Assembly: GCA_018061685.1 (NCBI GenBank)
Contig: JAGOTR010000002.1
Span: 1 to 60,257 of the forward strand
DNA length: 60,257 nucleotides
Reading direction: 5' to 3'
Origin: Candidatus Magasanikiibacteriota bacterium
Lineage (GTDB): Bacteria > Patescibacteriota > Patescibacteriia > Magasanikbacterales > UBA922
Below the pieces are notes generated by a model. It worked only from the letters and a program-made list of their open reading frames with translations. It did no database searches and was not told the origin of the DNA. Positions 5,229 through 60,257 of the stretch are shown here, one piece after another (the first letter of the stretch is position 1; the number at the start of each line of letters is the position of its first letter). A program made the position numbers and the translations under genes.

Positions 5229-5265
5229 AACAATTAACTTTTAACTATTAACAATTAACTTAGTA

Positions 5266-5372
5266 TGTCATTGCGAGGAGTCCCTCAGGACGACGAAGCA
5301 ATCTCTCATAGAGCGTATTATTTCAAAACCCTCTATGAGAGATTGCTTCGCCCTATCGGGCTCGCAATGACA
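5266..5372. repeat. Family A palindromic element (TGTCATTGCGAGG ... CTCGCAATGACA), copy 1
   Basis: 107-nt near-perfect hairpin. Outer arms and the CGACGAAGCAATCT / AGATTGCTTCG arms are shared with the copy at 52390..52505. Confidence 0.85.
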
Positions 5373-5384
5373 CACCGAGGCTAC

Positions 5385-13674: not shown

Positions 13675-13684
13675 AAAAAAACAA

Positions 13685-13750
13685 AGGCTCCGTCCCCATG
13701 ACGGAGCCTCCCCCCAAAACATTTTTTAAACACTTCTAAAGTGTTTTTTT
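13685..13750 (+). terminator. Two tandem terminator hairpins after the 232-aa CDS
   Basis: AGGCTCCGTC/GACGGAGCCT (13685-13709), then AAACACTT/AAGTGTTT followed by a T-run (13728-13750). Confidence 0.6.
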
Positions 13751-13765
13751 ATATAGAAAGAAAAA

Positions 13766-13794
13766 TTGACAAATTATCAATATTATTGTAGTCT
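13766..13794 (+). promoter_or_regulatory. Putative promoter for the 1024-aa GC-rich CDS (TTGACA-N17-TAGTCT)
   Basis: Lies in a ~340-nt AT-rich spacer. A second extended -10-like ATGCTATACA sits at 13810-13819 inside the palindrome 13801..13825. Confidence 0.4.
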
Positions 13795-14052
13795 CACATG
13801 TTCTATTGTATGCTATACAATAGAATAAAAAGGCTAAAATTAGCAAAAAAATATATTCTCTTTTTTATAGTAATACACGATCTTTACAATAAAGATATAT
13901 TTTTGCTACTACCAAACAGGTTTGGCTTAGAAAAGAGAGATATTTTTTATGTCTTTCTTTTCTAGGCTAAACCTATGTTATTGACCATAATTCTTTGGGC
14001 AAAACATTGTTTTGGTCTAGCAATCGGGGCTCTGCCCCAAAGGAGAAACGCC

Positions 14053-39000: not shown

Positions 39001-39710
39001 CCTTCAGTTACAGTACCAGCGCCCATAGAAACACGGTTGAACACAGCTTGAGAAATCACGCGAACGTCTGTCTTTGCAACGCCACCAAGGGTGACAGCAG
39101 CAACAGAAGCAGCTTGACTTGCTTCAACCATGTGAGCTTGTCCGTCTTTAATTACGTAGATGTTTTCACTACCTTCTACACGAACCAATTGTCCGTTGTG
39201 TGGGATAGCTTCAGTGATTTCAGCACCACGTCCTACGTAGTTTGGCCAGTATACATCTGGGATGTCTCGAACGAGAGAAGCCCAAGCAGCACCATAGAGG
39301 GCGCGAGCAACTTCTTCACTTCCGATTTTTGAAATTCTGTTGTTTGGTTCAACAACGTACACACTTGGAGAAATTTCTACTTTCACCAAACGTGATCCAG
39401 GGCGGTAGTTAACTCCGTATGGAGCAACACTTGGTGCTGGATAGCTGTCAACACAAGTATTTGAGATTTCAACTACACCAGAGAAATCTTTGTACCATGT
39501 TTTGTATACTTCACCAGTTGGGAAGTACATACGTTCCATGTTGCTGTTCAACAAGTACACAGCACTGTTGCCAGGTACTTTAAACAAGTCACCTGGTTCC
39601 AATGTAGGACAGGTAGCTGCTTGTGCAACCATAGGGACGAGGGCAGTAACGCCAACACTCCAAAGGATTGTCACGAGAACAACAGACCATGTAAACGCTT
39701 TTTTACTCAT
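36057..39710 (-). CDS. Large secreted surface (S-layer-like) protein with beta-rich repeats
   Basis: Signal peptide MSKKAFTWSVVLVTILWSVGVTALVPMVAQA. Three N-terminal LVxVxGSxxVYVI-type repeats. More than 1000 aa of T/S/V/A/G-rich sequence. Strong terminator. Alternative starts at ATG 39728 (AGGTGA SD at 39740-39745) and GTG 39743. Confidence 0.8.
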   Translation of the reverse strand: MSKKAFTWSVVLVTILWSVGVTALVPMVAQAATCPTLEPGDLFKVPGNSAVYLLNSNMERMYFPTGEVYKTWYKDFSGVVEISNTCVDSYPAPSVAPYGVNYRPGSRLVKVEISPSVYVVEPNNRISKIGSEEVARALYGAAWASLVRDIPDVYWPNYVGRGAEITEAIPHNGQLVRVEGSENIYVIKDGQAHMVEASQAASVAAVTLGGVAKTDVRVISQAVFNRVSMGAGTVTEGTLYADPTQGAGGAGSPAPGQPGTPVSEGSLRVSLSGDTPVAGNLAKGANANMLALNLQAGPSTVKVTKLTLTQVGLSNSTDVENMKIVDAAGLVYGNTVSALNANDTAVFTFPQPLEVPANSVKTVYLRVGVPASGSTTGNSIQFSLKSGADVVTASNATISGSFPFTSSAFGIIGATVGTAVVAQDGTTSDATPDSGDTDVILNKFKVTAGATEDILIESLTFKEAGTASVSDYNNVELWDASKGVSLGQASFNAEGKVHFSGLNIIVPEGKTQRFVVRTDVVSGAGLTMNVDLVEGSSDVLMAVRGQKLGFYLTPTVSNSWNGKGSSDQTINSGSLIITRSAATPAAGNISSGDDVRLAAFRFEAKGEPILVTAVTVSSTLTTMFRSEVTNMVLKDAEGNIVAGPLNGSDAASAGAETAAFSDSFTVPLGQHDYFFEATISDAVSSNDAVLSAIYEAAAVTAKGFNTGDSVTPTGSFSVQGNTLVVNAATLTAVTLTTPAARSVAPGVQDLIWMTGALRANNSGEDVMVETIVLEATLGDAGDDANRLDNFEIWADLTAASSARGDAFETRVSDTQQFVDSAAGDETLSFTLTSQIRVPKNGEVRVAVIGDLASGATAGDTFAVSFDTDAGDVSGTGFNSGATASATPTGAGQVFTVAANGTLTVAVEASYPSTTPKLAYSQQSGVVLAEFNLAANNVEILDLDSFKITDVGSDLAVETYWFYVGNTLLGSVAGGGTAEIFLVDNQQLVPANDDIVVTIKGTMADVDGTTVTDGMYVRPTIAAAGDIDTTGKASGAAVDNTHTVRGPSTTVYGVYPVVTVPAGWDNTNSGNIGAGSTAVGRMVVTAVGDQDLTFFSADSNQLKVFFNTNVQGTSTSKNFILKNVNTGETLDTVSQSSSSTSATFDFSANSLTIPAGQSVTLEVLVDLSQFDASGESIQMYLDDGTVTNIEFGVAGTGSFSHADIIFRGDLYFKGFSRA

Positions 39711-40065
39711 TCTTAATACGTCTGTCATAATAAATAATATCACCTATACGAGAGCGTCGATGAATATTGTTTCGTAAGAAACGCACATGATCTCCGCATA
39801 AGTTTGTGAAACAAAAGATTCAATCTTCCGATATAATCGGAATCGACCTTGTATGACTGAATCGTACCTCCAAGAAAATATCTTGGAGGGTGTTTCCTTT
39901 TTTCTGTATTACTACAGATACAAGGAAACGTCCCCTGCATTTTTCTGTTTTACGGAAAAACGCCATACCGTATGGCACTAGCCTCACATATATATCTATA
40001 TGTGAAAGCCATGCCATACAGTACCAGGGAGTCTGCTTATTTGTAAATACACGACTCTTGTACCA
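39711..40065 (-). promoter_or_regulatory. Long structured 5' region of the S-layer-like gene
   Basis: ~355 nt non-coding with several hairpins (CCTCCAAGA...TCTTGGAGG, GTTTCCTT...AAGGAAAC, CCATACCGTATGG, CACATATATATCTATATGTG). No convincing promoter hexamers found by eye. Confidence 0.4.
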
Positions 40066-40123
40066 CTTATAGGTACATTGTTTCTCTCAAGCTATTGATA
40101 AAGAGAATCAATGTACCTATAAG
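40066..40123 (-). terminator. 15-bp stem hairpin immediately after the anti-sigma-like gene
   Basis: CTTATAGGTACATTG (40066-40080) pairs with CAATGTACCTATAAG (40109-40123). Large 28-nt loop and no clear U-run. Confidence 0.4.
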
Positions 40124-40125
40124 GA

Positions 40126-41367
40126 TTAATTATTTACGTCAATACTACTTGTTTGTATGGTTGTACTGCTATTGGTACTTGGTGTTTTTATAGGATCAAC
40201 AATTAAATCTTTTGTTGACTGAATCGTTTTTGCTACATCCACCAATACATTTTGTGTTTCTGTTGTTAATGTATTGAGTATTTTTGCCTTTTCAATAGCA
40301 CCTTCCACATTGTTTCCCTCTAACAAGTTTTTCACCTCTTGTACAAAGACATCTCCTTTTTGAATTGATTCACCTACCTGTTGGACAGTTTTTTCTAAAG
40401 AAACAGTAGGCGTAGAGGTTGTAGTAAGAGAGACCGATCCAACAGTGCTACTTACCGGAATGGGCAATACTAGTGTAGAAGAACCCGTGAGTGCAATAGT
40501 CGTGGTTCCAAGCAATGCATTACTTGCAGCAGTTTCAACTTCTAATTTGACACCGGTTGCAATTACTTTGACATCTTCGGCATCAGAAAGTATTTCGCCA
40601 ATTTTCTTTTCTACTATTTGTTTTACTTCTTCTGTTTTTTCAGTAGTTACCAAGGCTTGAATTGCCTCAATTCCTGCATCATGAACAGCTTTCTTCGCAT
40701 TATTTACTTCTGTTTTTTTTTCGTCAGAAACAGCAATGGTTTTTAAATTATTTGAAATATCGGTTGTTTTTTCGGTAATTTGTTTGGCTACATTTGCCAA
40801 ATTTTCTGGATTATTTTCTTTAATATCTTGTAAATTTTTCCCAGCAGACACAATGGATTCTGTTAATCTATCTGCAGTTTTTTCTACATATTCTGATTCG
40901 GGTGCCATTTCTTTTAATTCTTCTGAACGTCTTGTTGCGAAAGCAAGGTTTAATTCTGCTTCAGACGTTGTGTTTCCCGTAGCGGCAGCCACGATTACTT
41001 GTGTTTTTTCTGTGGCTAATTTTACGCCATATCGAATAGCGTCTGTTGGAAGACTGGCAGAAGAGGCACTCACGGTCACAAGCCAACCACCCATAGCCAT
41101 ACTCACACTGAACACAACGACCAATAAAGAACGAAACGCTCCCGCAAACTTTTTTGGAATAAAAAGTGTATGAACAATATGAACAATATCACCTATCCCC
41201 TGCTTTTCTGCATATTCTTTTGAAACCGTTCCCTCAATTTGAGCAAACAATTGCTTTTTATTTTGAGCAACCCAATCAGCGCGAGGGCAAAGGCTTTCGT
41301 GCTTTTTTAATGTATTGAGTTGTGTTTTATACACACGGGTCATAACAAATCTATATTTTTTTTTCAT
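40126..41367 (-). CDS. Membrane protein downstream of the ECF sigma factor (putative anti-sigma factor)
   Basis: 17-nt overlap with the sigma gene. Short cytoplasmic N-terminus, one TM helix (LLVVVFSVSMAMGGWLVTV), long helical extracytoplasmic domain. Confidence 0.6.
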   Translation of the reverse strand: MKKKYRFVMTRVYKTQLNTLKKHESLCPRADWVAQNKKQLFAQIEGTVSKEYAEKQGIGDIVHIVHTLFIPKKFAGAFRSLLVVVFSVSMAMGGWLVTVSASSASLPTDAIRYGVKLATEKTQVIVAAATGNTTSEAELNLAFATRRSEELKEMAPESEYVEKTADRLTESIVSAGKNLQDIKENNPENLANVAKQITEKTTDISNNLKTIAVSDEKKTEVNNAKKAVHDAGIEAIQALVTTEKTEEVKQIVEKKIGEILSDAEDVKVIATGVKLEVETAASNALLGTTTIALTGSSTLVLPIPVSSTVGSVSLTTTSTPTVSLEKTVQQVGESIQKGDVFVQEVKNLLEGNNVEGAIEKAKILNTLTTETQNVLVDVAKTIQSTKDLIVDPIKTPSTNSSTTIQTSSIDVNN

Positions 41368-41926
41368 GAATTTCTTGTAACTTTTTTATCGCTCGATGCA
41401 ACAACACTCGGACATTGGTACTACTCTTCCCAACAATACTCGCAATTTCTTTTACAGACAATTCATCAATATATCTTAGGAGTATTATTTCTTGATAATC
41501 TTGTTTGAGCGATTCAAGTGATTTTAACAATGCGGTAATATCTTGCGTAACTTCTTTTTTTTCTTTTTCACGCCCATCATCGCTTGCAAGCTCTAATACT
41601 TGATCAAGCGAATATGTTGGTTTTTTTGCTCGTTGGCGATAAAAATCTACGACAACATTTCTCGCAACAGAGTAAAATAATCCACTCACACTTGTTACTT
41701 CTTTTCCTTTTTCATCTAATAAGTAATTCCAAACTTTTAAAAAAACATCGCTCGTCAAATCTTCTGCCTCTTCTCTATTATTTACCTTAAATAGAATGAA
41801 TCGGTATATTTTTTCAATATACAAATCATAGAGCTTTCCATAGGCTTCTGGGTCTTTTTTGGAAAGAATGGTGTAAAGAATGTGCTTTTCTTTGAGTGTA
41901 TTGTGAAGGGTTTTTATACCTTTCAT
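41351..41926 (-). CDS. ECF-type RNA polymerase sigma-70 family factor
   Basis: Region 2 (YRFILFKVNNREEAEDLTSDVFLKVW) and region 4 HTH (LSVKEIASIVGKSSTNVRVLLHRAIKKL). Start trimmed to the ATG at 41926. Confidence 0.85.
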   Translation of the reverse strand: MKGIKTLHNTLKEKHILYTILSKKDPEAYGKLYDLYIEKIYRFILFKVNNREEAEDLTSDVFLKVWNYLLDEKGKEVTSVSGLFYSVARNVVVDFYRQRAKKPTYSLDQVLELASDDGREKEKKEVTQDITALLKSLESLKQDYQEIILLRYIDELSVKEIASIVGKSSTNVRVLLHRAIKKLQEIHEKKI

Positions 41927-41973
41927 AATAGAAGACGCAATAGAAGATAAAATGTTACACTGGCGTTGACTGT

Positions 41974-42017
41974 TAACTTGTACCAATTAACAGTTAACTG
42001 TTAATTGGTACAAGTTA
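41974..42017. repeat. Perfect 44-bp palindrome (family C, TTAAC-rich)
   Basis: TAACTTGTACCAATTAACAGTT / AACTGTTAATTGGTACAAGTTA. Lies between the putative sigma promoter and the sigma start codon. Confidence 0.9.
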
Positions 42018-42072
42018 CTAGTTAACGAAAACCTTAAAATGTGCTCAATTAAGGCAAAAATATACAGGTAGG

Positions 42073-42101
42073 AGTATAGCATAGGAATGGGAAAAGATCA
42101 A
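42073..42101 (-). promoter_or_regulatory. Putative promoter of the sigma/anti-sigma operon (TTGATC-N17-TGcTATACT)
   Basis: Minus strand reads TTGATCTTTTCCCATTCCTATGCTATACT. Confidence 0.5.
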
Positions 42102-42120
42102 TTGGGGAATATCCAAAAAT

Positions 42121-42258
42121 ATGCAGATTTACGGATACTGTTGACTATTGGATAAATAGATTATTTGTATTAAAAAATACCAATAATTTATATCACCCAA
42201 TAATCCAATCACCAAAACCATCCGTAAATCTGCATTATCCGCATATCTGCATACTCCC
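42121..42258. repeat. Family B palindromic MITE-like element (ATGCAGATTTACGGAT ... ATCCGTAAATCTGCAT), copy 1
   Basis: 16-nt terminal inverted repeats at 42121-42136 and 42220-42235. The 39 nt at 42220-42258 are identical, in reverse complement, to 49103-49141. Confidence 0.85.
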
Positions 42259-42266
42259 AAAACAGA

Positions 42267-42355
42267 CTATACAAAATTGTATACACTACCCTATACAAAC
42301 TTGACATATTACCCTAAGTCTGCTAGTATCTTTTTGTATAAACTACTCTATACAA
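42267..42355 (+). promoter_or_regulatory. Promoter (TTGACA-N17-TGcTAGTAT) flanked by five (C)TATACAA half-sites
   Basis: -35 at 42301-42306, -10 at 42324-42329. TATACAA-type half-sites at 42267, 42277 (inverted), 42291, 42334 (inverted) and 42348. Confidence 0.55.
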
Positions 42356-42357
42356 AT

Positions 42358-42834
42358 ATGGCAATAATACCACCTATCGATACCCAAAAGATCGATACGG
42401 CTGTTTCTAGAGAAAATGAACCAAAAAAAGAGATTATTCGAGTGTCTATTTCAGAAGCGGCTCGACTTTTTGGCGTGAGTCAGCAAACCATTCGACGTGC
42501 TATTAAAATGCAAGAAATTGTATATGTGGTGGTAGGTGGCCGATATAAAATCAATTTTGAAAGCCTTGTGCAGTGGTCACAAGCAAAAACAACAGTTCGC
42601 AATAAATCAAATGAAAATGGCATTGGGCAGTATGTGGATAAATGGAAAATACGAAACACCCTGTATTCACCCAGCAAACGAAGTGTGGCGAAAGCAGAAG
42701 ATGCTAGCCAACACACAGATACCAAACAAAATCCCCCACCGAGTGGTTCACCGGTCTCAAACCCATTTGCACCCAAACCTCCCCAACAACCAGAAGCAAC
42801 CGAACCAAAAGAAGTGAAGCCTCTGTTTATTTAA
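42358..42834 (+). CDS. Excisionase/MerR-like helix-turn-helix DNA-binding protein with a Pro-rich tail
   Basis: VSISEAARLFGVSQQTIRRAIK HTH. Start trimmed to the ATG at 42358, downstream of the promoter. Confidence 0.7.
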   Translation: MAIIPPIDTQKIDTAVSRENEPKKEIIRVSISEAARLFGVSQQTIRRAIKMQEIVYVVVGGRYKINFESLVQWSQAKTTVRNKSNENGIGQYVDKWKIRNTLYSPSKRSVAKAEDASQHTDTKQNPPPSGSPVSNPFAPKPPQQPEATEPKEVKPLFI

Positions 42835-46212: not shown

Positions 46213-46312
46213 TTAACAATTAACGATTAACAATTAACTAGTAACTTTTTAAATTAAATCGTTCACCAAAGGATCATCAAGTTAATTGTTACTAGTTAGT
46301 AGTTAATTGTTA
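46213..46312. repeat. Family C TTAACAATTAAC-rich imperfect palindrome
   Basis: AACAATTAACTAGTAAC (46229-46245) pairs with GTTACTAGTTAGTAGTTAATTGTT (46288-46311). Related strings occur at 5231-5262 and 41974-42017. Confidence 0.7.
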
Positions 46313-49098: not shown

Positions 49099-49102
49099 AT
49101 TG

Positions 49103-49240
49103 GGGAGTATGCAGATATGCGGATAATGCAGATTTACGGATGTGGTTGATTATTAGATCAATCGATTATTAGTATTAAAATACGAATAATCTATTTATTC
49201 AATAATCTAATCATCAAAACTATCCGCATATCTGCATATT
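49103..49240. repeat. Family B palindromic element, copy 2 (inverted relative to copy 1)
   Basis: 49103-49141 is the exact reverse complement of 42220-42258. The right arm ATCCGCATATCTGCAT (49222-49237) pairs with 49109-49124. Overlaps the last codons and the stop of the upstream GT gene. Confidence 0.85.
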
Positions 49241-50452
49241 ATTATATGATTCTTCAATTCTACGAATATGCGTTTCTACATCATTGTTCACTTCGACTTG
49301 TTTTCTGAGTGTACTACTCATTTTTTTTCTTATTTGTAATGGTGCATAATACCATGTTTCTATCGCCTGTGCAAGGCTTTTTGCGTCGTTTGGCTTGACT
49401 AATAATTCTTTTGGTAATAATTCTGGAATACCCCCAATACGCGACCCTATAACAATTTTTCCTAATGCTTTTGGTTCTAAAATACTTAATGGGTAATTTT
49501 CATACCAAAGAGATGGTACCACAAAAAGACGGGCCTCCTCGAGTAACTTTTGTAAGGACTCCCCTGTTTGAAAACCGGTACAACGGACATTAGATATTTT
49601 TTCCGTATGAATGCGTTTCGTAATCCCTAATAACTCAGGCCCCGTCCCCACTATTTTATACGAAATATCGGGTGTTTTTTTTGCTGCATCTAATAGTACA
49701 TGAAGTCCCTTTTCTTCAGAGAGTCTTCCCACATAGGCCACGAACCCTCCGTCTTTTTTGGTGGGTGGAGTAACGTGAGTGGTATCGATTGGGTGTGGAA
49801 TATGAATAAACCTATTTTTATTCCACCCATGTTTCACACAGATATCGAGAATAAATTGACTTGGCGCAATAAATTGATCGACATATCGTTCATAATATTT
49901 CATGATTTTGTGATGAAATATCATTTCAGCACGAACAACACGGCTTTGGATGCGACTATCTTTCATGCATTTATTTTTCACGCAGGTGCCATACCAGCCC
50001 ACAGCATCCTCTTCATGAATTTCCCCATGATGAAACATGGTGTAATTGGGAGAAATAAGTTTGTAATCATGGAGCGTCATGATAATGGGTATGTTTCTTT
50101 TTTTTATCACAGGCAAAATAGACGGTGAAATATGATGATAAATATTGTGCAAATGCACCACATCGACCTGGTGTTCAGAGAGTAAGCGTTCCATATTCCG
50201 CTTGGCTTCAAGCGAATATAACATACGTCCAACGGATTGAATTTTTTTTCTGAACGACACTTTTTGCGGATCACTAATATCCATTTCTGAAACAAAATAC
50301 GGGCTATACGGGCTTGGGAGGGCACTAGGGTGATGCATGGAAAACGGAATTACGGTATGCCCTTTTTTTTGTAATTCTTCCGACAAAAACAAGGCATAGT
50401 TCGATGCGCCATCTCGATGCCAAAAATATTTATGCGCTTGTACAATATTCAT
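49220..50452 (-). CDS. Glycosyltransferase, GT4/group 1
   Basis: GT-B fold motifs (YENYPLSILEPKALGKIVIGSRIGGIPE). Start at ATG 50452 (or GTG 50458). C-terminal NNMQICG and the stop are encoded by the family B repeat. Confidence 0.8.
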   Translation of the reverse strand: MNIVQAHKYFWHRDGASNYALFLSEELQKKGHTVIPFSMHHPSALPSPYSPYFVSEMDISDPQKVSFRKKIQSVGRMLYSLEAKRNMERLLSEHQVDVVHLHNIYHHISPSILPVIKKRNIPIIMTLHDYKLISPNYTMFHHGEIHEEDAVGWYGTCVKNKCMKDSRIQSRVVRAEMIFHHKIMKYYERYVDQFIAPSQFILDICVKHGWNKNRFIHIPHPIDTTHVTPPTKKDGGFVAYVGRLSEEKGLHVLLDAAKKTPDISYKIVGTGPELLGITKRIHTEKISNVRCTGFQTGESLQKLLEEARLFVVPSLWYENYPLSILEPKALGKIVIGSRIGGIPELLPKELLVKPNDAKSLAQAIETWYYAPLQIRKKMSSTLRKQVEVNNDVETHIRRIEESYNNMQICG

Positions 50453-52382: not shown

Positions 52383-52389
52383 CACCAAA

Positions 52390-52505
52390 TGTCATTGCGA
52401 GGAACGACCCGAGGGAGTGACGAAGCAATCTTTAATAGATGGTTTTACCATAATACTATCTATTAAAGATTGCTTCGTCGCCCTGAAGGGCTTCTCGCAA
52501 TGACA
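52390..52505. repeat. Family A palindromic element, copy 2
   Basis: 116-nt hairpin with the same outer arms as 5266..5372 but a different, still self-complementary core. Confidence 0.85.
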
Positions 52506-52510
52506 TACGC

Positions 52511-52539
52511 TTGACGAGAAAATGGCAGGTAATTATACT
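52511..52539 (+). promoter_or_regulatory. Promoter TTGACG-N17-TATACT for small coiled-coil gene 2
   Basis: -35 at 52511-52516, -10 at 52534-52539. Confidence 0.55.
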
Positions 52540-52572
52540 ACCCGTTGCTCTACATCATGAGCGATTTTATTT

Positions 52573-52959
52573 ATGCCAACACATTTGGCAATAATTCTTA
52601 CATCTATGGAGGAGACAAACATAAAGGGGATGTTGGAGGATATGTTGGGCATTTTGCAGCATATCAAAGATACCGGGGCATCGAAAGAGGATATTAAAGA
52701 TATGGCGACAAAAAATGATATCGTTGGCATGGCAACAAAAGAGGATATCAAAAACTTGGCAACGACAACTGATTTACAAGTATTAGATCATAAAGTCGAT
52801 TATCTCAAATATAAAATAGATACGATAGAAATAAAATTAGATAAACAAGGCAAAGCATTGGAAAAAATTGCAAAGACGAATCAACAAGATAATACTGCTT
52901 TGGGGAAAGATGTCATGCTGTTGAAAAAGAAAGTGTTGGTACTGGAAAACAGAAAATAA
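52573..52959 (+). CDS. Small coiled-coil hypothetical protein with (A)TKxDI repeats (128 aa)
   Basis: SKEDIKDMATKNDIVGMATKEDIKNLATTTDL repeats followed by heptads. Paralog of 52026..52382. The start could be an internal ATG (52606). Confidence 0.6.
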   Translation: MPTHLAIILTSMEETNIKGMLEDMLGILQHIKDTGASKEDIKDMATKNDIVGMATKEDIKNLATTTDLQVLDHKVDYLKYKIDTIEIKLDKQGKALEKIAKTNQQDNTALGKDVMLLKKKVLVLENRK

Positions 52960-52980
52960 AAATATATGTAAAAACAAAAA

Positions 52981-53006
52981 ACCCACTTTAAAAAGTGGGT
53001 TTTTTG
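52981..53006 (+). terminator. Intrinsic terminator
   Basis: ACCCACTT-TAAA-AAGTGGGT followed by TTTTTG. Confidence 0.8.
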
Positions 53007-53113
53007 TATTATTCTTTTCACAAGTAACTTATGGAGAGAATGATGGGGGGGCTCGGTGTTTTCTTGGGAAAAAACTTGTCCGAGCCCTAGGTTGAAAGAA
53101 CAGAGTTGGTGAA

Positions 53114-53150
53114 GGTCTCCCTGCGAGCTTTTGATGGCCGCAGGGAGACC
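53114..53150. other. 12-bp GC-rich hairpin downstream of the 772-aa CDS
   Basis: GGTCTCCCTGCG / CGCAGGGAGACC with a 13-nt loop. No U-run in the minus-strand orientation. Confidence 0.35.
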
Positions 53151-53220
53151 CGATTTTTAGAAGCTCATGTTGAGCCCTGTCTCACCTTGGCTTCAGGGGG
53201 TGAGGAGGGGTGGCTGGCGC

Positions 53221-55539
53221 CTAGAGCGGAAGCGGGCTTCCGTCCGGGCGCAGGCCGTCACAGTTGTTGTCGAACTCGGTGCCGCCGGCACCATCGAGGA
53301 GCCAATCCGTGGCCCCAGGATAGTTACCAGCGCCGCCGCCGACGCTGTCGTCGCAGTCTCCGATGAGGAGCTGCGCACACTGGAGGTTGACGGAGCCGAG
53401 ACAGGTCATGCCTCCGGCGAGCTGAGCTGCGTCCAAGTCGCAGACACAGTCCCCGTCGTCGTCCCACCGGTCGGGATTGCCGTTGCCCTGGGGGCCAGCA
53501 TTGGCACCGGACTGATTGACGCCCGTGCGACCGTTCATGTCGGTGGCGTCGATACAGGTACCGGCGCGGCAGGCCTGGCCACCAGCGCAGTCGGCGTCGA
53601 CGACGCACTGCACAACCTCGCACTCGGCCGCATTCGCAGCACAGGTGGGGTCCGCGCAGTCGGTGAGCCCGTCGCCATCGTTGTCGATGTCGTCGTTGCA
53701 CTGGTCACCGTCGTTGCCTTCGGTGTCGCAGGCGTTGCCCACGCTGTCGTTGTCGTTGTCGGCCTGGTTGGGGTTGGCGGTGTTCACACAGTTGTCACAC
53801 ACGTTGCCCACGCCGTCGCCATCGGCGTCCGCCTGATCCGCATTGGAAATGCGGGGGCAGTTGTCGTTGGCGTCGAGGATGCCATCGCCGTCGGTGTCGA
53901 GCTGCGGGCCATAGCCAGGGGCATAGGCCAAGCACCCCCGATTGGGAGCGCAGGCCACGGGACCGTTGGCCGGACCGCAGATGTCCACGGCAGGATCGAT
54001 GTCGATCAAGCCGTAGTCCGACTCGCCGAGGCGCACGCACCGGACGTAGATCAGGTGCGCACCGGCAAACCGAGCCGGCAGGCCGTACTCGACGGGAGGA
54101 TTGTTGATGTTGCCGCAGGTGCCCTTCTCTTCGAGGGCGCCTTCGTTCTCATTCTCATTGAAGGTGCAGAACATGAACTGGGGGTTGCCCCCCTCGTCAC
54201 AGACCGCGGGCACTCCATCGATGTCGATGAGCGTGCCAGCCGGCATCTGCTCGGGCTCACCGCAGGCGGCGAACTCGGGGTCGCAGAAGCCAACCCAGCA
54301 GGGGCCGACGGCGGCGGGACAGGTCATGTTCAGGTCTTCGGCCGGGGCGCAAGCGCCCTCGCCGTTGCACGCGTCTTCCACGGTGCAGGGATCGTCGTCA
54401 TCGCAGACGACACCGGCGGCCAGGTCGCCGGCAGAGGTGCACATGCCCGTCTCGGGGTTGCACACCTCATTGCCATTGCAGATCTCGCCATCGTCCTGGC
54501 AGACGACGGCGGTGCCTTCGCACTCGCCCTGGTCACACCGATCGGTGTGGGTACAGGCGTTGGCGTCGTTGCACACGGCACCGTTCATGGGCTCGGCCGG
54601 CTGCATGCAGCCGAACTCATCGTCGCACCGCGGGGCGGCGGTGCAGGGGTTGGCGTCGGCCTCGCACACGACCGCCGCGTACTGGCAGGTGCCATCGACG
54701 CAGCTGTCGGTGGTGCAGGCGCTGCCATCGCTGGGGCAGTCGGCGTTGACCTGGCAGTCGAGAACCTCGCGGCAGACCGCGAACTGGGAAGGGGTTTCGG
54801 CCCCCTCAAAATCCAGCTCGCACTGCTGCCGCAGGCCACGGGCAGACAGCCCACACTCGTTGGCGAACGGCACAAGCAAAGCCTGGCCGTCGTCAGCGAT
54901 GAAGAGACCGACGCCGAAGCGGTCGGTGTAGGGAACGTAGATCGCGTCCCCCTCTTCATCGAACATGAACTCGCCGGTCTCGGGGTTGCGGGCGTGAACC
55001 GACACGTTGTAGTCAACGCCCGTGAGGGCGTCGACACCACACCACATCAGCGCGTAGGGGCCCCAAGGCCCGAAGGCCGTGTGCCCGTTGATGTGGGGAT
55101 CCAGCACGGTCTGGGCCTGCTGCAGAGCAGCGAGACCCACACCGACATACACCTGCCCTCCCTCGACGGGGGTGGCCGTGTTGTAGTTGCCGCTGTACCG
55201 CTCGACCAGCACCTGGAACTCGGGCACCTCGACCATGGGGGTGAGGGGCTCGTTGAGGGACTCGACACAGCTGCCCTCGTGGGTCAGCTGCACCTGGTCG
55301 ATCATGCCGCAGTACTGGGTGGGCCCGTTCTTGTTCACGAGGAACATCTCGGGGCCGCTGACATACACCATGACGTTGGTGTCGACGCGCAGCTTGTTCT
55401 GGGTGGCGTTGCCACCCACCGGGCTCTGCGTGCCCGGGTTGGGGTTGGAGTTGCCCTCGGGCTGCCCGTACTGGCAACCGGTGAGGGCGATGAGGGAGAG
55501 GGCGGTGACCAAACCGCCAAAGGTCAGGGTGCGGTGCAT
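53221..55539 (-). CDS. GC-rich lipoprotein with Cys-rich repeats and thrombospondin type-3 (Ca-binding) repeats
   Basis: AAGGAG SD. Signal plus lipobox LIALTGC. Repeated CxxDxxxCTxDxCxxGxC units. DTDGDGILDANDNCPRISNADQADADGDGVGNVCDNC... TSP3-type repeats near the C-terminus. Confidence 0.85.
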   Translation of the reverse strand: MHRTLTFGGLVTALSLIALTGCQYGQPEGNSNPNPGTQSPVGGNATQNKLRVDTNVMVYVSGPEMFLVNKNGPTQYCGMIDQVQLTHEGSCVESLNEPLTPMVEVPEFQVLVERYSGNYNTATPVEGGQVYVGVGLAALQQAQTVLDPHINGHTAFGPWGPYALMWCGVDALTGVDYNVSVHARNPETGEFMFDEEGDAIYVPYTDRFGVGLFIADDGQALLVPFANECGLSARGLRQQCELDFEGAETPSQFAVCREVLDCQVNADCPSDGSACTTDSCVDGTCQYAAVVCEADANPCTAAPRCDDEFGCMQPAEPMNGAVCNDANACTHTDRCDQGECEGTAVVCQDDGEICNGNEVCNPETGMCTSAGDLAAGVVCDDDDPCTVEDACNGEGACAPAEDLNMTCPAAVGPCWVGFCDPEFAACGEPEQMPAGTLIDIDGVPAVCDEGGNPQFMFCTFNENENEGALEEKGTCGNINNPPVEYGLPARFAGAHLIYVRCVRLGESDYGLIDIDPAVDICGPANGPVACAPNRGCLAYAPGYGPQLDTDGDGILDANDNCPRISNADQADADGDGVGNVCDNCVNTANPNQADNDNDSVGNACDTEGNDGDQCNDDIDNDGDGLTDCADPTCAANAAECEVVQCVVDADCAGGQACRAGTCIDATDMNGRTGVNQSGANAGPQGNGNPDRWDDDGDCVCDLDAAQLAGGMTCLGSVNLQCAQLLIGDCDDSVGGGAGNYPGATDWLLDGAGGTEFDNNCDGLRPDGSPLPL

Positions 55540-55814
55540 ATTTACTCCTTATGCGTCCGCGGTTGATACAAAAGTCCTTCCCCGCTTGCAGCAGGGATAT
55601 CGGTCTACTTGGAAAGTAGCTCTCGATTCCCCCTGGCTGATGGGGGTAAGGACTTGGCTTCACTTCTTCCAGCCAGATGTACTGAGTACAAGTGTACTCC
55701 ACACACATGGCTGGAAGAGAGGTGAAACAATTTTTTTTACAAATAAATTGTAAAGATCTTTTTTAAAGGGATTAATCTCCACCAAGAAAATTTTTTGATG
55801 AAGATATGCTCCTC

Positions 55815-55879
55815 TCCCTCGTCGTTTCGTATGAATGCGTTCGCCTTGTGAGCAAATGCGTTCAATGAACGACGAGGGA
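55815..55879 (-). terminator. 12-bp stem hairpin after the 232-aa lipoprotein CDS
   Basis: TCCCTCGTCGTT / AACGACGAGGGA with a 41-nt loop containing a direct repeat of AATGCGTTC. Confidence 0.35.
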
Positions 55880-55895
55880 AGTAGTTGTTGGTTGT

Positions 55896-56594
55896 TCAGT
55901 CGGCGGGATCGAAACCCCGCCATTGCCTGGTCGTGGGATCCAGGCATCCCATACCGGCCTCGGCCCGACACACGAGCGCACCCTGCGACGCAAGGCCGCA
56001 GACGTGCTCGGGCAAGAGGTGCCACTGGCGGTCCTCGCGGCACTGTGCAATGGCGAGGATCCCCTCTGCGCCAAACTGGACGCAGGTGTAGGACCCGACA
56101 TCATCGCACACCCCGGTGACAGGGATGGGCGCACACTCCTCGGCCCCGGGGGGCAGAAAGGTGGTCACCCCGTCGCAGTGGCACTCGCCGTCTCGCCAGA
56201 CTTCGCCCTCGCCGCAGCGGGGGTTGTTCTGGCAGGCACCATCCACGCACCGGTCGGTGGTGGACGGGTCGTCGTCCATGCACTCCGCATTGCGGGTGCA
56301 TTCGGGGGGCGTGGCGTCGGGCAGGGAGGCGTCGACATCGCTGTCGGGCGCCTCCATGTCGGGGGTGGGGGGCGTCGCGTCGGGCTCGGCGTCGGGCAGG
56401 GCGGCGTCCTCACTGGGAGGAGCCGCATCGACCGCGGCATCGGGCTCGGTGGCGTCGGGCGCGGGGATGGTGCCATCGACATGGACGTGCGCCTGGGCGC
56501 AGACGTCCACGCCATCGCGAACGCAATCGTCCTTCCACTGGCACCCGAAAGTGCCGCCGACCACCACCAGAAGCCCGCAAATGAGGGTCTTCAT
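55896..56594 (-). CDS. GC-rich Cys-rich lipoprotein (232 aa)
   Basis: AGGAGG SD 8 nt upstream of the ATG at 56594. Signal plus lipobox GGTFGC. Pro/Asp/Ala-rich linker. Cys-rich C-terminal half. Confidence 0.8.
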   Translation of the reverse strand: MKTLICGLLVVVGGTFGCQWKDDCVRDGVDVCAQAHVHVDGTIPAPDATEPDAAVDAAPPSEDAALPDAEPDATPPTPDMEAPDSDVDASLPDATPPECTRNAECMDDDPSTTDRCVDGACQNNPRCGEGEVWRDGECHCDGVTTFLPPGAEECAPIPVTGVCDDVGSYTCVQFGAEGILAIAQCREDRQWHLLPEHVCGLASQGALVCRAEAGMGCLDPTTRQWRGFDPAD

Positions 56595-56844
56595 GTATCT
56601 ATCCTCCTGCAGCCAAATTGAGGGCTGCACTCGTGGGTCCGCGGCACGCGCGGAACTGTTACATTTCTTAGATGACCGATAAATGTTTCATTTTAACAAT
56701 GAACTACTTATCGGTCACCTAGAAAGAAGGAAAAAATTGAACAACTTAGTTTATAAAGAACTCGGCACATATATGCCAATCGGGAAAGTTAGCAAAGTAC
56801 GAGACCCTGCAACTTTCTTGATTGATATACATGTATAAACAAAG

Positions 56845-56872
56845 ATACTACCACATTTTTACTATTTGTAAA
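56845..56872 (-). promoter_or_regulatory. Putative promoter inside the AT-rich spacer of island II (TTTACA-N16-TGgTAGTAT)
   Basis: Minus strand reads TTTACAAATAGTAAAAATGTGGTAGTAT. About 245 nt upstream of the ATG at 56594. Confidence 0.45.
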
Positions 56873-57022
56873 TAACCTTTGTCACTATGCACTTAACGAA
56901 TTAAATGCACACTGATTGGGTGCCGAGTATGGGGTGACTCGGCCGCACAACCTGCCCTGGGGAAGGGAGGTTCAATATCCATGAGGTAACAATTTTTTTG
57001 CGGCCGGAGTGGCCGGGGGGTG

Positions 57023-57868
57023 CTAGAAGCGCCCACCCAGCCCGAGCCCCCCTTGCAGGGGCTCAAACTCACCGGCCGCCTTCTTGTTGGCGGCAACGAA
57101 CGGGAAGCCGACCCGCAGGGCGGCGTGGAGGCCGGGCGAACCCAGCTCCAGCGCACCCTGGGGCAAAAGCTCCACATGCTCCCCGGCCGTGTTGATCACG
57201 ACCGATCCAGCCACGCCACCCCGAAAGAATTCACCGCCGCTCATGAGCTGAGCGGTGAACCCGAACAGAAAGGCGTTGCTGGGATCACCTTCGCCACCAA
57301 CCAGAACGCCGAGAGAGCCGAAGCCCCCAAGAGCGTTCCAGCTGGCACCAGCCTCGAGCGTGCCAAAGGCGGTCGCGTCGAGATCGGCGCCGGCGAGGAA
57401 GGTGGTGTGAAGCATGAGCTTCCCGGCCTCGAGGTCGTCGAGGCGCTCGGTGGCGGTGGCCTGGAAATTCTCGAGGTCGTTGAGGCGATCCTCGATGGCC
57501 TTGATGGCCTCTTCGTTACGGGCGATGCGGGCGGTGAGCGCGAGCTCGACCGCCCCGAGGCTGCTCGACCAGTCGGTCTTGGCACTCGTGATGAGCGCCT
57601 CGACCTGATCCTTGGAAAGGAGCCCCCCCAACCCTTCGCCGAAGCGATTGATCAGGAGGTCGGTCAGGGCACTCTGACGCGCCGCCGAACTCTTCAGCCC
57701 GGCGAGATGGGTGTTGAGGGTGGCGATCACGCCCTCGAGACGAGAATTCTCGTCCTCGAGGGCGGTAATGTTACTGTCCCGCAGACGGTCGGTGACCGCT
57801 GCGGGGGCGGGGGTGAACCCTCCGAGGAGGGCGAGGGTCACGAGGACCCCCATAAAAAAGGTCTTCAT
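57023..57868 (-). CDS. GC-rich secreted protein: coiled-coil N-half, Gly-rich beta-strand C-half ending ...GLGLGGRF
   Basis: AGGAG SD. Signal peptide MKTFFMGVLVTLALLGGFTPAPAA. Heptad-like region, then alternating hydrophobic/Gly segments and a C-terminal Phe. Confidence 0.8.
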   Translation of the reverse strand: MKTFFMGVLVTLALLGGFTPAPAAVTDRLRDSNITALEDENSRLEGVIATLNTHLAGLKSSAARQSALTDLLINRFGEGLGGLLSKDQVEALITSAKTDWSSSLGAVELALTARIARNEEAIKAIEDRLNDLENFQATATERLDDLEAGKLMLHTTFLAGADLDATAFGTLEAGASWNALGGFGSLGVLVGGEGDPSNAFLFGFTAQLMSGGEFFRGGVAGSVVINTAGEHVELLPQGALELGSPGLHAALRVGFPFVAANKKAAGEFEPLQGGLGLGGRF

Positions 57869-57892
57869 GTCTCTACTCCTGGTACTGAGGGT

Positions 57893-58465
57893 TTACTTGC
57901 ACTCGACCTCGGCCGCCGCAGCGGCCTGGGCCTCCAACATCTCCACGGCCAGGCCGCAGAGGACGGCGCCACGCCCCATGGGAGCGCAGCATGCTTCGCG
58001 ATCGGCGGCCGAGAAGCTACCGATCAGGCACTCTTCCGGCCGCTTGGCCGCGGGGGGCAGGGCGATGATGCCCATGCCCTTGGCCTTGGCGGCCTCGGTC
58101 TGCTTCCGAGCGACGAGCAAAGCTCGCACGCTCTTCTTGCAGTTCGAGGCCTCCTGCCCCTTGGCGGCCGCCTCGCAGCACTCGTCTCGCATTTTCAGCG
58201 AAAACGGGTACCCATCGAACTCCACGGCGCAAACCGCAGTGCTCTTGGGCGCCTCGGGAAGACCGCATGCGATCAGACCCTTGATGGACTCGTCCACCCG
58301 GGCCATGATCAACTTGCAGTCTCCCTTCAGCTTGGCATCGGCGGCCGGGTCAGAAATGACCGCGACACACCGAGCCTGCTGCTCGGCCGTGGGGAGCGGG
58401 AGGGCGGGGCTCTGGGCGTTCGCGACGCCGCAGAGCAGGCACAGGATCATGGCGATGCTACGCAT
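57893..58465 (-). CDS. GC-rich secreted Cys-rich protein (190 aa)
   Basis: GAAAGGA SD. Signal peptide MRSIAMILCLLCGVANA. About a dozen Cys residues in the mature region. Confidence 0.75.
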   Translation of the reverse strand: MRSIAMILCLLCGVANAQSPALPLPTAEQQARCVAVISDPAADAKLKGDCKLIMARVDESIKGLIACGLPEAPKSTAVCAVEFDGYPFSLKMRDECCEAAAKGQEASNCKKSVRALLVARKQTEAAKAKGMGIIALPPAAKRPEECLIGSFSAADREACCAPMGRGAVLCGLAVEMLEAQAAAAAEVECK

Positions 58466-58744
58466 GATCGTTTTCCTTTCTGCAGGTTTTCTAGGCCTGC
58501 TTTTCTTCAGTTAATGGTGGAGCGCCCGGGCGCCCACGTGTAAAGGGCGACACGCGCCCGGACTCTTGTCTCATACAATTGAGAAATACCGCTTCTCAAC
58601 TCTAGTGAGACAAGAGTCCTAAATTATTATATTAATAGAATTTATCCGGCGTAGCCTTCAGGCGAAGCCGGACCTCATGGATTGTAATGATCAGGTGTAT
58701 CTTGCCCCTAGAGAGACAGAGCTTCTAGTTTCAAAATAACGCAA

Positions 58745-58774
58745 TACTATAGCATATTTTTGCCCCTTTGTCAA
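58745..58774 (-). promoter_or_regulatory. Strong sigma70-type promoter reading into island II (TTGACA-N17-TGcTATAGT)
   Basis: Minus strand reads TTGACAAAGGGGCAAAAATATGCTATAGT. About 275 nt upstream of the ATG at 58465. Confidence 0.6.
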
Positions 58775-58828
58775 TGTATTGGACAAAATATATTATTTTT
58801 TGGCTTAAATTAGCCATTTTAAATAAAT

Positions 58829-58866
58829 AAAAAAATCCTCCGAATCAATCGGAGGATTTTTTTTGT
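58829..58866 (-). terminator. Intrinsic (bidirectional) terminator after the partial orphan CDS
   Basis: AAAAATCCTCCGA-ATCAA-TCGGAGGATTTTT flanked by A- and T-runs. Confidence 0.8.
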
Positions 58867-58874
58867 ATACGCTT

Positions 58875-60257
58875 CTATCTTCCAGCAACTTTCCCATTAT
58901 TTTTCCACCCTTCTATTTTTTGCAATAAATCTGCTTTCATAAGGGTAGAGCCATCTGTGTCTGCTGCATTATAGCCAACATCAAACGCCTGCACAGCCGT
59001 ATCTATTTGATATTTCAACTCAGGGGTAATAGTCACACCTGGTAAAAAGTAACTATAATCCCCTTTTGTCGCTGCTTCGACAAAAGCAATTGCTGTGCCG
59101 CTTGTTCTTTTTATATTTTCATATATCGCCGCTTGTTCTGGTGAAACACCCGTATCAACAGATACTTTTTCTACACCAGCACTTGCTTGCTTCGGAGGTT
59201 CTTGTGGCAAAACTTCTACAGGTTCTGGTCGAGGTGGTAGCTCAATAGGTGTATCTTCAACAGGACTACTCGTACCTCCACTGAGTACCCGCCCAACAAT
59301 TTCTTTAATTTCAGCTGTGTTATTACCTGGCTTGGCAAATGCTGTATCTAATTCTGATAATGCATTGATATTATCTTTTGTAACAATGGCAGAGGCTACA
59401 CCAGAAGGTGTTTCAAATCGCACAGTATCATTGGCACCAAGGCGATATTTCAATCCGTTATATTCTACAAATCCCCCATCACTCTCACGCAGTAATCCAC
59501 GGAGTGCATCAATCCGTTGTGAAGAAGATAGTTCTGTATTGTAAAAATTCTTAAACGTCGTACTCGTTTTTTGCATCTCTGCATCCATTTGTGCACGCAT
59601 ATCGTATGGCTTTTCAATTTTTTCTTCAGCCGTTTCAGTACTATCATACATCGATCTCGATACCAGCCCCGCCTCACTTCTATCAACAGGCGATTGAAGT
59701 TCCCCATTTGAAATGGCAACATTGCCACCCTTCTCCCGCACAAAATACTGTCCATCCTTTTCAAAGTAGCCATACCGTTCAAGCGACTCCACGTCCCCTC
59801 GACTAAAACCATGCTTGTCAAACAACCAATCAAATGTTGATTGCGTTACCGTACCAGGCATGGCGCCAATACTTTTTGCAAATGGTTCACTATTTGGTAC
59901 ATCAATCCATTTTTCGCCCGCCTCATCCCAACGGCGAAACAATACTGTCCCATCGTCGAGCTTGCGAGAAATATAACTCCCGTCTACAACACCACGAGCA
60001 GGCACATTCCACATGTCGCCATCAATATTTGCTTGTTTGAATCCACTCGGAGGTACTTCTCCCGGAAATTTCATTTCAGGTGTTTTTTCTGGCACAACCG
60101 GAGTAACAGGAGCAAATGATTTTGCACCATGCTCGAGAACAAACATGTCATCGGCTTTAATGCCCACGGTGCCATCAGGCTTCATGTATGGTTTGTATTC
60201 AATAGTGTGTGTTTTGCCACTACTATCAGTCACTTGATACAGCGGTGTTTTGTCAAA
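58875..60257 (-). CDS. Orphan protein, 5'-partial (frame stays open to the window edge)
   Basis: The ORF track starts at GTG 60233, but the frame is open through 60257 (FDKTPLYQ...). No signal peptide in the visible part. Pro-rich linker PIELPPRPEPVEVLPQEPP. Confidence 0.7.
   Translation of the reverse strand, partial: FDKTPLYQVTDSSGKTHTIEYKPYMKPDGTVGIKADDMFVLEHGAKSFAPVTPVVPEKTPEMKFPGEVPPSGFKQANIDGDMWNVPARGVVDGSYISRKLDDGTVLFRRWDEAGEKWIDVPNSEPFAKSIGAMPGTVTQSTFDWLFDKHGFSRGDVESLERYGYFEKDGQYFVREKGGNVAISNGELQSPVDRSEAGLVSRSMYDSTETAEEKIEKPYDMRAQMDAEMQKTSTTFKNFYNTELSSSQRIDALRGLLRESDGGFVEYNGLKYRLGANDTVRFETPSGVASAIVTKDNINALSELDTAFAKPGNNTAEIKEIVGRVLSGGTSSPVEDTPIELPPRPEPVEVLPQEPPKQASAGVEKVSVDTGVSPEQAAIYENIKRTSGTAIAFVEAATKGDYSYFLPGVTITPELKYQIDTAVQAFDVGYNAADTDGSTLMKADLLQKIEGWKNNGKVAGR

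Follow-up and report, generated by a model that had tools for sequence, protein, structure and literature searches.

The stretch of DNA analysed here, referred to as the window, is a complete contig of 60,257 nt from an NCBI metagenome-assembled genome (MAG) of a Candidatus Magasanikbacteria bacterium (locus tags KBD15_..., proteins MBP97607xx), a member of the candidate phyla radiation (CPR). It carries on its minus strand four GC-rich genes for secreted proteins, g1 to g4, which form the cluster named island II and alternate with AT-rich spacers. In our judgement the balance of the evidence tips towards a long-standing hypervariable surface-protein locus of Magasanikbacteria, in which conserved AT-rich slots hold exchangeable GC-rich coding cassettes. 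According to this proposal, the cassettes would be swapped wholesale between strains and flank and leaders kept, presumably by recombination in the conserved DNA of slot and flank. The slot would give strong transcription and its structured leader may stabilise, process or anti-terminate the mRNA. The cassettes would encode lipid-anchored, disulfide-rich proteins with Ca-binding repeats (g1 and g2) and a two-gene secreted module (g4 and g3), whose products together would make up a variable surface coat or adhesin set, and the repeat domains would ultimately come from high-GC, Myxococcota-like bacteria.

In order of transcription, the cassette genes are g4 (57893-58465, 190 aa, 14 Cys), g3 (57023-57868, 281 aa), which follows g4 after 24 nt in the same cassette, g2 (55896-56594, 232 aa, 18 Cys) and g1 (53221-55539, 772 aa, 57 Cys). 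Their G+C content is 0.66-0.70 and their G+C content at third codon positions (GC3) 0.81-0.85 (0.85 in g4 and g1, 0.81 in g3, 0.83 in g2), compared with 0.31-0.44 and 0.23-0.40, respectively, in the 38 backbone genes among the 44 genes of the window. In 100-nt bins the spacers reach G+C contents of 0.29 (55700-55799), 0.32-0.35 (56700-56899) and 0.31-0.41 (58600-58899). The codon fractions in island II versus the backbone are 0.72 versus 0.25 for GAC, 0.80 versus 0.20 for TGC, 0.50 versus 0.16 for GGC, 0.00 versus 0.27 for TTA and 0.96 versus 0.13 for AAG. Only 3% of the island II codons end in A. The preference for AAG, CAG and GAG amounts to 0.83-0.96, and the GC skew is close to zero. The four coding sequences (CDSs) with their coordinates, the contrast to their AT-rich surroundings, the AT-rich spacers and the switch towards GAC, TGC and GGC had been proposed in an initial annotation made from the sequence alone, and each of these is borne out by the counts. 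The further claim that the GC-rich signal is confined to the CDSs holds in so far as composition alternates gene by gene; strict confinement does not hold, as the signal overruns the CDSs by about 70-125 nt upstream and 85-180 nt downstream in the form of GC-rich hairpins, such as the one in the 3′ tail of g1 (53114-53151, minus strand). Long antisense open reading frames (ORFs) lie on the plus strand over the GC-rich genes (53167-55566, 799 aa; 57020-58543, 507 aa; 55923-56621, 232 aa); they are an expected by-product of high GC3 and are not to be annotated as genes.

Each slot follows the order terminator, consensus sigma-70 promoter, motif (TCATTACAA or a variant with 1-2 mismatches), hairpin of 53-66 nt, GC-rich hairpin and Shine-Dalgarno (SD) site, with a leader length of 230-310 nt. 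Slot A, which precedes g4 and g3, is insulated from the AT-rich flank gene (58875-60233, minus strand, GC3 0.30) by the intrinsic terminator of the latter (58829-58863, minus strand, a 15-bp stem followed by a T-run). Its promoter TTGACA-N17-(TGc)TATAGT (58746-58774) matches the consensus at 11/12 positions and has the upstream TG. The exact 9-mer TCATTACAA follows at 58682-58690, then the long hairpin (58560-58619, -37.2 kcal/mol, z = -6.8, more stable on the sense strand) and, just 5′ of the SD site, the GC-rich hairpin (58521-58559), which has GGGCGC...GCGCCC equivalents in the leaders of four related loci (L005, L006, L007 and L011); all of these elements are on the minus strand. In slot B, upstream of g2, the promoter TTTACA-N16-(TGg)TAGTAT (56845-56874, hexamers at 56872-56845, 9/12 matches) is overlapped by the motif variant TATTTACAA (56866-56874), and the long hairpin at 56669-56721 has -27.9 kcal/mol and z = -9.5. 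Slot C, upstream of g1, contains the variant TCTTTACAA (55748-55756) with no good -10 element after it, and a long hairpin at 55665-55718 (-34.2 kcal/mol, z = -6.1); both slots are likewise read on the minus strand. Of the promoters that the initial annotation had placed in the three spacers, those of slots A and B stand, whereas the third spacer offers only a weak match (TTTACA at about 55754, 8/12). The locus ends with an AT-rich bidirectional intrinsic terminator at 52974-53007.

Altogether ten leaders were examined: those of slots A, B and C of the window, three of L005, two of L006 and two of L007. All ten show one order of elements, namely small hairpin, motif, long near-perfect hairpin, one or more GC-rich hairpins, SD site and ATG. 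The motif and the long hairpin are separated by 17-62 nt, or by 146 nt in slot B, where an extra hairpin is inserted. TCATTACAA is found exactly on the sense strand of 6 of the 8 independent leaders (expected number 0.023), and none of 20,000 shuffles reached six. Its relaxed form T[CA][AT]TTACAA has seven matches in the 60-kb window, five of which are located in leaders: those of the three island II slots, of a second GC-rich locus, island I (at 13881), and of a gene for a 1228-aa surface protein (at 40049). The long hairpins have folding energies of -28 to -37 kcal/mol and z-scores of -6.1 to -10.9. Their stability is greater on the strand that is sense for the downstream gene, in keeping with G-U pairs in an RNA. 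Their sequences are wholly different between lineages; position and shape are kept. Hairpins of like kind are common in the intergenic DNA of the backbone, some of them in palindromic repeat families, and no other observation speaks more strongly for a resident nature of the slot DNA. By their predicted signals, the spacers are a conserved, dedicated leader module and go beyond generic native promoters.

Several other descriptions of the spacers were tried and rejected. A blastn comparison of all spacers with the window returned terminator palindromes only, which speaks against copies of a mobile promoter element or of a miniature inverted-repeat transposable element (MITE), and the island spacers do not belong to the palindromic repeat families of the backbone. 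TCATTACAA does not serve as a -35 element in slot A or in the leaders of L005 and L006, since strong promoters are located upstream there and a -10 element is missing at 16-18 nt; such a role is possible in slot B and in the leader of the gene for the 1228-aa protein. Rfam returned only sub-threshold, terminator-like matches for the leaders at 52900-58900.

The promoter module of slot A, TTGACAAA-N6-AAAATATG-N-TATAGTAT, also occurs in L005, L011, L035 and L046. With its 24 specified bases it has 52 exact matches in GTDB species representatives (loci L014-L065), 6 of the 52 in Magasanikbacteria and 6 in other Patescibacteria. Several matches have no ORF behind them, and the module may act as promoter for stable RNAs or for other CPR genes with high expression. 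In two Rifle Magasanikbacteria genomes it precedes unrelated ORFs with GC3 values of 0.84 and 0.95 and without signal peptide, located at 894-2424 of L035 (RIFOXYC2_FULL_40_16) and 7139-8000 of L046 (RIFCSPHIGHO2_02_FULL_47_14). GC-rich genes behind this promoter thus seem to be a wider Magasanikbacteria trait; for other genes that follow it, in L033 and L059, GC3 is ordinary. Two tandem consensus promoters are found in L005, L007 and L011.

The sharp composition steps of island II are what would be expected if GC-rich reads of another organism had been joined to CPR contigs by misassembly or bin contamination. However, at least six alternations of composition all track gene borders, and the same junctions are spanned in contigs from three further runs or samples, in which the mosaic is 99.9-100% identical: a 7856-nt Logan contig of SRR11088391 is 100% identical to 52402-60257, a 4508-nt contig of JGI 3300043411 covers 55576-60083 with 4 mismatches, and a 1151-nt Logan contig of SRR35185575 covers 55620-56770 with 1 mismatch. 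The identical junctions in three further assemblies show that the mosaic is not chimeric. With the same mosaic present in the named Rifle Magasanikbacteria genomes and the leaders conserved across all loci, the probability of a chimera or contamination is practically negligible. The differences across samples consist of three synonymous ones in the AT-rich flank gene and one non-synonymous one in g2 (JGI and Logan variants), i.e. 1 in about 2.1 kb of cassette CDS versus 3 in 1.2 kb of flank.

Every informative context of a g4 relative is the same cluster with the same GC mosaic. In L005 (JGI 3300043411, 10.6 kb), an AT-rich flank gene of at least 903 aa (GC3 0.33) shares 26% identity over 238 aa (E = 1e-17) in its C-terminal part with the flank gene of the window. 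It is followed by a g4-like gene (36-37% identity, GC3 0.81) and, 26 nt further on, a g3-like gene (26-29%, GC3 0.77), then by a spacer of 27% GC, a collagen/TSP3 lipoprotein gene (GC3 0.79), a spacer of 31-35% GC, a MopE/TSP3 lipoprotein gene (GC3 0.82) and another AT-rich spacer. The loci L006, L007 and L011/L012 from other runs have the arrangement g4, g3 and lipoprotein, with GC3 values of 0.78-0.96 and AT-rich leaders, so that GC3 spans 0.77-0.96 over all seven allele lineages and reaches 0.96 in L006. Since the products of the window and of its relatives are only 26-37% identical and belong to the same cluster, the locus predates the split of those lineages. The flank gene, a homologue of which flanks the cluster in relatives, may be part of the same apparatus as the cassettes beside which it is conserved; the L005 homologue has predicted membrane segments and no Pfam domain, and the copy in the window is cut by the contig end at position 60257.

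Closer comparisons show where the conservation ends. Between L011 and L005 the nucleotide identity is 93-100% at the 3′ end of the flank gene and 87-98% in the leader, and the amino-acid identity is 42-43% for g4 and 33-34% for g3. In a global alignment of L007 with L005, the leader is 88-100% identical over 440 nt, identity falls to 45-60% near the start codon of g4 and stays low through g4 and g3, recovers to 82-96% about 45 nt past the g3 stop codon and drops again at the next start codon. At conserved residues, four-fold sites of the alleles are 27-56% identical, as against about 41% expected from composition and 93% in the flank gene, which indicates that synonymous sites are saturated. 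The differences are therefore not a matter of fast amino-acid evolution, and the coding blocks are old lineages that have been exchanged relative to the backbone. The locus shows what is typical of allelic replacement of the O-antigen/cps type, conserved flanks around a divergent centre and atypical composition in all alleles, and in these sibling comparisons coding blocks differ and regulatory DNA is kept, in agreement with the earlier proposal of coding sequences wired gene by gene into native regulatory DNA. In composition the coding sequences are indeed foreign, and the regulatory DNA around every transcription unit is AT-rich and of resident type.

The initial annotation had gone further and taken the four genes for unameliorated foreign sequences, i.e. 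a single recent acquisition spliced behind native promoters of this genome. The extreme GC3 contrast, a codon table of donor type and repeat-domain homologues in MAGs of Deltaproteobacteria or Myxococcota are in line with this idea, but it is very unlikely in view of the related strains, in which the orthologous locus encodes products 26-37% identical to those of the window, the synonymously saturated alleles are equally GC-rich (GC3 0.77-0.96) and the leader architecture is common to all lineages. A recent island would further be expected to have an empty site in relatives and a decaying composition; the sites in L005 and L011 are occupied. The search for an empty site suggested in the initial annotation yielded only slots occupied by other alleles, and a search of GTDB genomes for a sibling or an empty site by means of the Wzy-like neighbour gene found no relative. 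Mobility genes were likewise not found.

Among the 44 genes, Pfam scans revealed no integrase, transposase or reverse transcriptase, the 60 kb encode no tyrosine recombinase, no flanking direct repeats were found and no tRNA or tmRNA gene adjoins the island, the sole tRNA gene of the window being located at 18-92. The earlier statement that such features are missing is thereby corroborated. Moreover, the window contains no pairs of attC cores (RYYYAAC...GTTRRRY; 0 observed), no template/variable repeat pair, no repeat of the 3′ end of island I and no repeated cassette copies.

These searches bear on two explanations for the divergence of the cassettes. Targeted diversification by hypermutation or by a system resembling diversity-generating retroelements (DGRs), with a GC-biased error spectrum that drives both divergence and GC content, would account for the divergence setting in near the CDS borders next to non-coding DNA that is 88-100% identical, and for the 3% of A-ending codons. 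In addition, the C-terminal domain of the island I protein is an FGE-sulfatase domain, which is C-type-lectin-like, and this fold is used by DGR targets. We nevertheless give it little credence, as the window has neither a reverse transcriptase nor a template/variable repeat pair, DGRs work on stretches of about 100 nt, which makes whole operons too large, and the cassettes are nearly invariant across the three samples (1 difference in about 2.1 kb versus 3 in 1.2 kb of flank), which argues against hypermutation on that time scale. Site-specific capture as in integrons, with the hairpins as recombination sites, would be suggested by gene-sized units that each have a long imperfect hairpin and whose contents vary between lineages. 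This is most improbable: besides the lack of a tyrosine recombinase in the 60 kb and of attC-core pairs, the hairpins lie 5′ of the genes within transcribed leaders, are kept with the slot and not with the cassette, and like hairpins precede AT-rich backbone genes; furthermore, every unit has its own promoter.

The saturated alleles all retain GC3 values of 0.77-0.96, and high GC content is therefore the stationary composition of the process by which they diverge. Our more specific and tentative proposal, put forward with some doubt, is that an AT-rich CPR bacterium holds single genes at GC3 0.8-0.96 through synonymous saturation, either by a force confined to the CDSs, which could for example be selection that acts on mRNA or, in a special expression class, on the choice of codons, or by a slot-based route, in which high-GC genes would be captured repeatedly and in a dedicated manner behind the conserved promoter and a leader with a new RNA motif. 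Biased gene conversion is an unlikely cause, as the leaders have kept a GC content of 29-35% inside the recombining region. Translational selection for high expression is unlikely as well: Lys, Gln and Glu are mostly encoded by G-ending codons, and the genes that the slot A promoter module precedes in L033 and L059 show ordinary GC3.

The principal alternative is a continual re-import from high-GC bacteria, possibly the hosts of the epibiont, which outpaces amelioration, the divergence of the alleles having arisen in the donors. It requires no unknown evolutionary force, and the domains of g1 and of island I (Dicty_CTDC, TSP_3, MopE and FGE-sulfatase) are related to contigs of uniformly 67-71% GC. 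On the other hand, g3 and g4 have no relative in a high-GC context among about 15 billion proteins, and the informative contexts are all mosaics with AT-rich leaders. The three contigs with g1-type repeat proteins have GC3 values of 0.83-0.92 and an intergenic G+C content of 0.54-0.75; the AT-rich spacers can therefore not be traced to the donors, and an exact swap at the CDS borders would need either homology inside the CDSs or an unknown capture mechanism. The GC-rich genes of several CPR loci, unrelated ones included, share a C-ending signature (CTC>CTG, CCC>CCG and GCC>GCG) that the three high-GC contigs do not have, and partly ameliorated members of the g3 or g4 family were not seen. Re-import is accordingly regarded as rather unlikely, if the most serious competitor. 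As g3 and g4 occur only in such loci, part-ameliorated members are missing and the C-ending signature is common to the loci, we lean slightly towards a constraint limited to the CDSs that keeps the cassettes GC-rich inside the CPR gene pool, over re-import from unsampled high-GC donors.

A number of observations weigh against an old locus of slots and cassettes with a compositional regime of its own, and some of them are what re-import would predict. GC3 varies by locus, from 0.63-0.65 in island I of the same genome over about 0.8 in island II to 0.96 in L006, and the intermediate value of island I fits different ages or donors better than one force acting in situ. The GC-rich ORF of L046 directly follows a tmRNA gene, a classic site of island integration. 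Slot contents are non-homologous between some lineages, g2 having no counterpart in L005 (a collagen/TSP3 protein is present there), so that gene capture is needed beyond allelic exchange. We know of no mechanism that holds GC3 values of 0.8-0.96 in single genes of a bacterial genome with a GC3 of 0.3. As to the leaders, exact TCATTACAA is not present in slots B and C, which have TATTTACAA and TCTTTACAA instead, and the variant in slot B coincides with the -35 hexamer. Most sibling contigs are short (0.5-10.6 kb) and syntenic on one flank only, and L007 may represent a paralogue of the locus; the flank gene is part of both L005 and L011, which makes that pair allelic. Finally, expression, localisation and leader function are predicted from sequence.

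With respect to the cassette proteins, the signal peptides, two lipoboxes and AGGAG-type SD sites reported before are visible in the sequence. The candidate lipoboxes are LTGC in g1 and TFGC in g2; read by eye against the pattern [LVI][ASTVI][GAS]C, g1 has ...IALTGC, and g2 has ...GGTFGC, which is non-canonical with F at -2. Cys makes up 7.3-7.7% of g1, g2 and g4. In g1, thrombospondin type-3 repeats (TSP_3, PF02412) score 33 bits against a gathering cut-off of 25, with 2 matched stretches, and are accompanied by Dicty_CTDC-like Cys repeats. Its best matches show 30-50% identity over 8-48% of the length and come from MAGs of Deltaproteobacteria or Myxococcota. The suggested link of the Cys-rich and TSP3 repeats to Myxococcota is thus substantiated by relatives in Myxococcota-like contigs of uniformly 67-71% GC. 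The label "diderm-style" that was attached to the four proteins is not needed, since lipoboxes are not restricted to diderms and are present in monoderms too. For g3 and g4, relatives were not found in any genome of high GC content. A 773-aa protein (P0050) was dismissed as an allele of g1, its contig being uniformly 71% GC.

The protein g3 consists of a coiled coil followed by a Gly-rich C-terminal half ending in ...GGRF. Homologues are found only at the same position in L005, L006, L007 and L011; a word-indexed search of 5.8 billion clusters and a profile search yielded nothing beyond g3 itself and the L006 copy. Its structure model has a pLDDT of 47, is poor in the C-terminal half and cannot be used. 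A terminal aromatic residue after a Gly-rich C-terminal half is also seen in the secreted protein encoded at 12976-13674 and in the L005 and L006 homologues of g3 (C-termini of the set: ...GGRF, ...HNLF, ...VGRW and ...NYMF). This half is probably beta-rich, and the terminal aromatic is similar to the signal at the C-terminus of outer-membrane beta-barrels, a surprising feature in a CPR cell presumed to be monoderm.

For g4, an exhaustive HMMER search of 1.84 billion representatives gave nine matches, of which 7 are true family clusters; the other two, P0134 and P0139, were discarded as repeat artefacts. The AlphaFold2 model is a helical bundle with a pLDDT of 84.5, by which g4 is confidently predicted to be a helical, disulfide-rich protein, and Foldseek found no match to this fold in the PDB (best E = 1.3). 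The full g4 alignment was too divergent to serve as a query for scans of genomes and metagenomes, and the closer g4 pair used as query returned nothing from JGI metagenome contigs or viral contigs. Relatives in viral contigs or phage genomes were not found.

The second locus of the same design, island I (12976-17127, plus strand, GC3 0.63-0.65), comprises a GC-rich gene for a secreted protein of 232 aa (12976-13674) and, behind an AT-rich leader (13675-14052), a second GC-rich gene (14053-17127), whose secreted product of 1024 aa contains 98 Cys, 9 MopE repeats and an FGE-sulfatase domain. The leader contains a TTGACA promoter, TCTTTACAA at 13881 and a hairpin of 57 nt (13918-13974, z = -10.9). 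A 1051-aa protein (P0010) was rejected as an orthologue of the island I protein, because only the FGE-sulfatase domain matches, at 22% identity.

The remaining backbone encodes PBP2, FolD, a type IV pilus-type ATPase, many glycosyltransferases, two Wzy-like proteins, an ECF-type sigma factor and several large AT-rich surface proteins; apart from the tRNA at 18-92, no Rfam match in the whole window reached the gathering score. The AT-rich gene for the Fn3-like surface protein of 1228 aa (36057-39743) has a leader (39744-40125) styled like those of the GC-rich genes, with three long hairpins (39892-39929, 39966-40023 and 40066-40123) and TATTTACAA at 40049. In the region 40126-42834, the gene of the ECF-type sigma factor (41351-41986) overlaps that of a 413-aa neighbour without known function, and a divergent gene for an HTH_17 protein (42277-42834) adjoins this pair beside large surface-protein genes; the pair and the HTH_17 protein are possible regulators of a surface regulon. 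Palindromic intergenic repeats of three families, with copies that are 75-91% identical, occur in the AT-rich backbone (5263-5375 and 52389-52508; 42100-42261 and 49099-49259; 5229-5261 and 46213-46311), and some of them form nested hairpins of about 115 nt and are MITE- or REP-like in appearance.

Atypical GC content with sharp borders is usually taken as a sign of recent horizontal gene transfer (HGT). This inference fails here, where the atypical composition is stationary across saturated alleles. A search of the literature on CPR bacteria with GC-rich genes, HGT or surface proteins and on Magasanikbacteria found no description of the phenomenon. The slots, the candidate leader RNA motif and the orphan secreted families of g3 and g4 provide a concrete, testable locus in an uncultured group, and the locus with these two families is probably central to the variable surface that Magasanikbacteria-type CPR cells present to hosts or phages. 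If true, a CDS-confined force or slot-based capture would be a new kind of bacterial genome compartmentalisation, tied to the variable surface of an epibiont. In practical terms, GC-rich segments in CPR MAGs should not be thrown out as contamination during binning.

Known systems share individual features with the locus. RfaH with ops (JUMPstart) and LoaP act through a short leader element, with or without hairpin, in the antitermination of atypical operons for surface structures or secondary metabolites, and the recurrence of TCATTACAA in 6 of 8 independent leaders, within the predicted transcripts, is reminiscent of them. However, TCATTACAA has no sequence similarity to ops (GGCGGTAG), so that the comparison is an analogy only, and no NusG paralogue is encoded in the window. 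Genomic islands and integron arrays resemble island II in atypical composition, surface-protein cargo and gene-sized units, but differ from it by integrase, tRNA or tmRNA adjacency, direct repeats or attC sites, and here the orthologous site is occupied by other alleles. Genes of S-layer proteins such as slpA of Lactobacillus have very strong, sometimes tandem promoters and a long 5′ untranslated region whose stem-loop stabilises the mRNA (PMC10221546). The tandem promoters of L005, L007 and L011 and the stable hairpins in all leaders are similar, though the hairpins are not placed at the 5′ end but 100-180 nt past the predicted start sites; this likeness concerns expression signals only, as predicted for the leaders.

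The vls system of Borrelia likewise has surface lipoprotein cassettes whose G+C content lies above that of the genome (mean 49.1% versus about 28.6%) in all species despite divergence. It consists of one expression site and an array of promoterless silent cassettes with a GC skew of about 0.52 and G-runs on the coding strand, whereas island II has a promoter per gene, no silent copies in the 60 kb and a skew near zero.

O-antigen and capsule clusters, for example rfb of Salmonella, correspond to the locus in conserved flanks, a very divergent centre and atypical composition in all alleles; they encode a surface structure under diversifying selection, as surface exposure is predicted here, and are served by the conserved leader element JUMPstart/ops. 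Across serogroups, Salmonella O-antigen clusters have 28-37% GC in a genome of 51-52%, for a cause that is still debated, and it was considered "highly unlikely" that the divergent wzx and wzy genes had diverged in situ (PMC3715488). Unlike in these clusters, the deviation in the present locus is upward (GC3 of 0.8-0.96 in a genome of GC3 0.3), the cargo consists of secreted proteins and not of sugar-pathway enzymes, the host belongs to the CPR, a conserved promoter and leader serve each gene or gene pair separately, and composition alternates by gene. The locus mirrors the question of alien composition in hypervariable surface loci that is posed by O-antigen clusters and vls.

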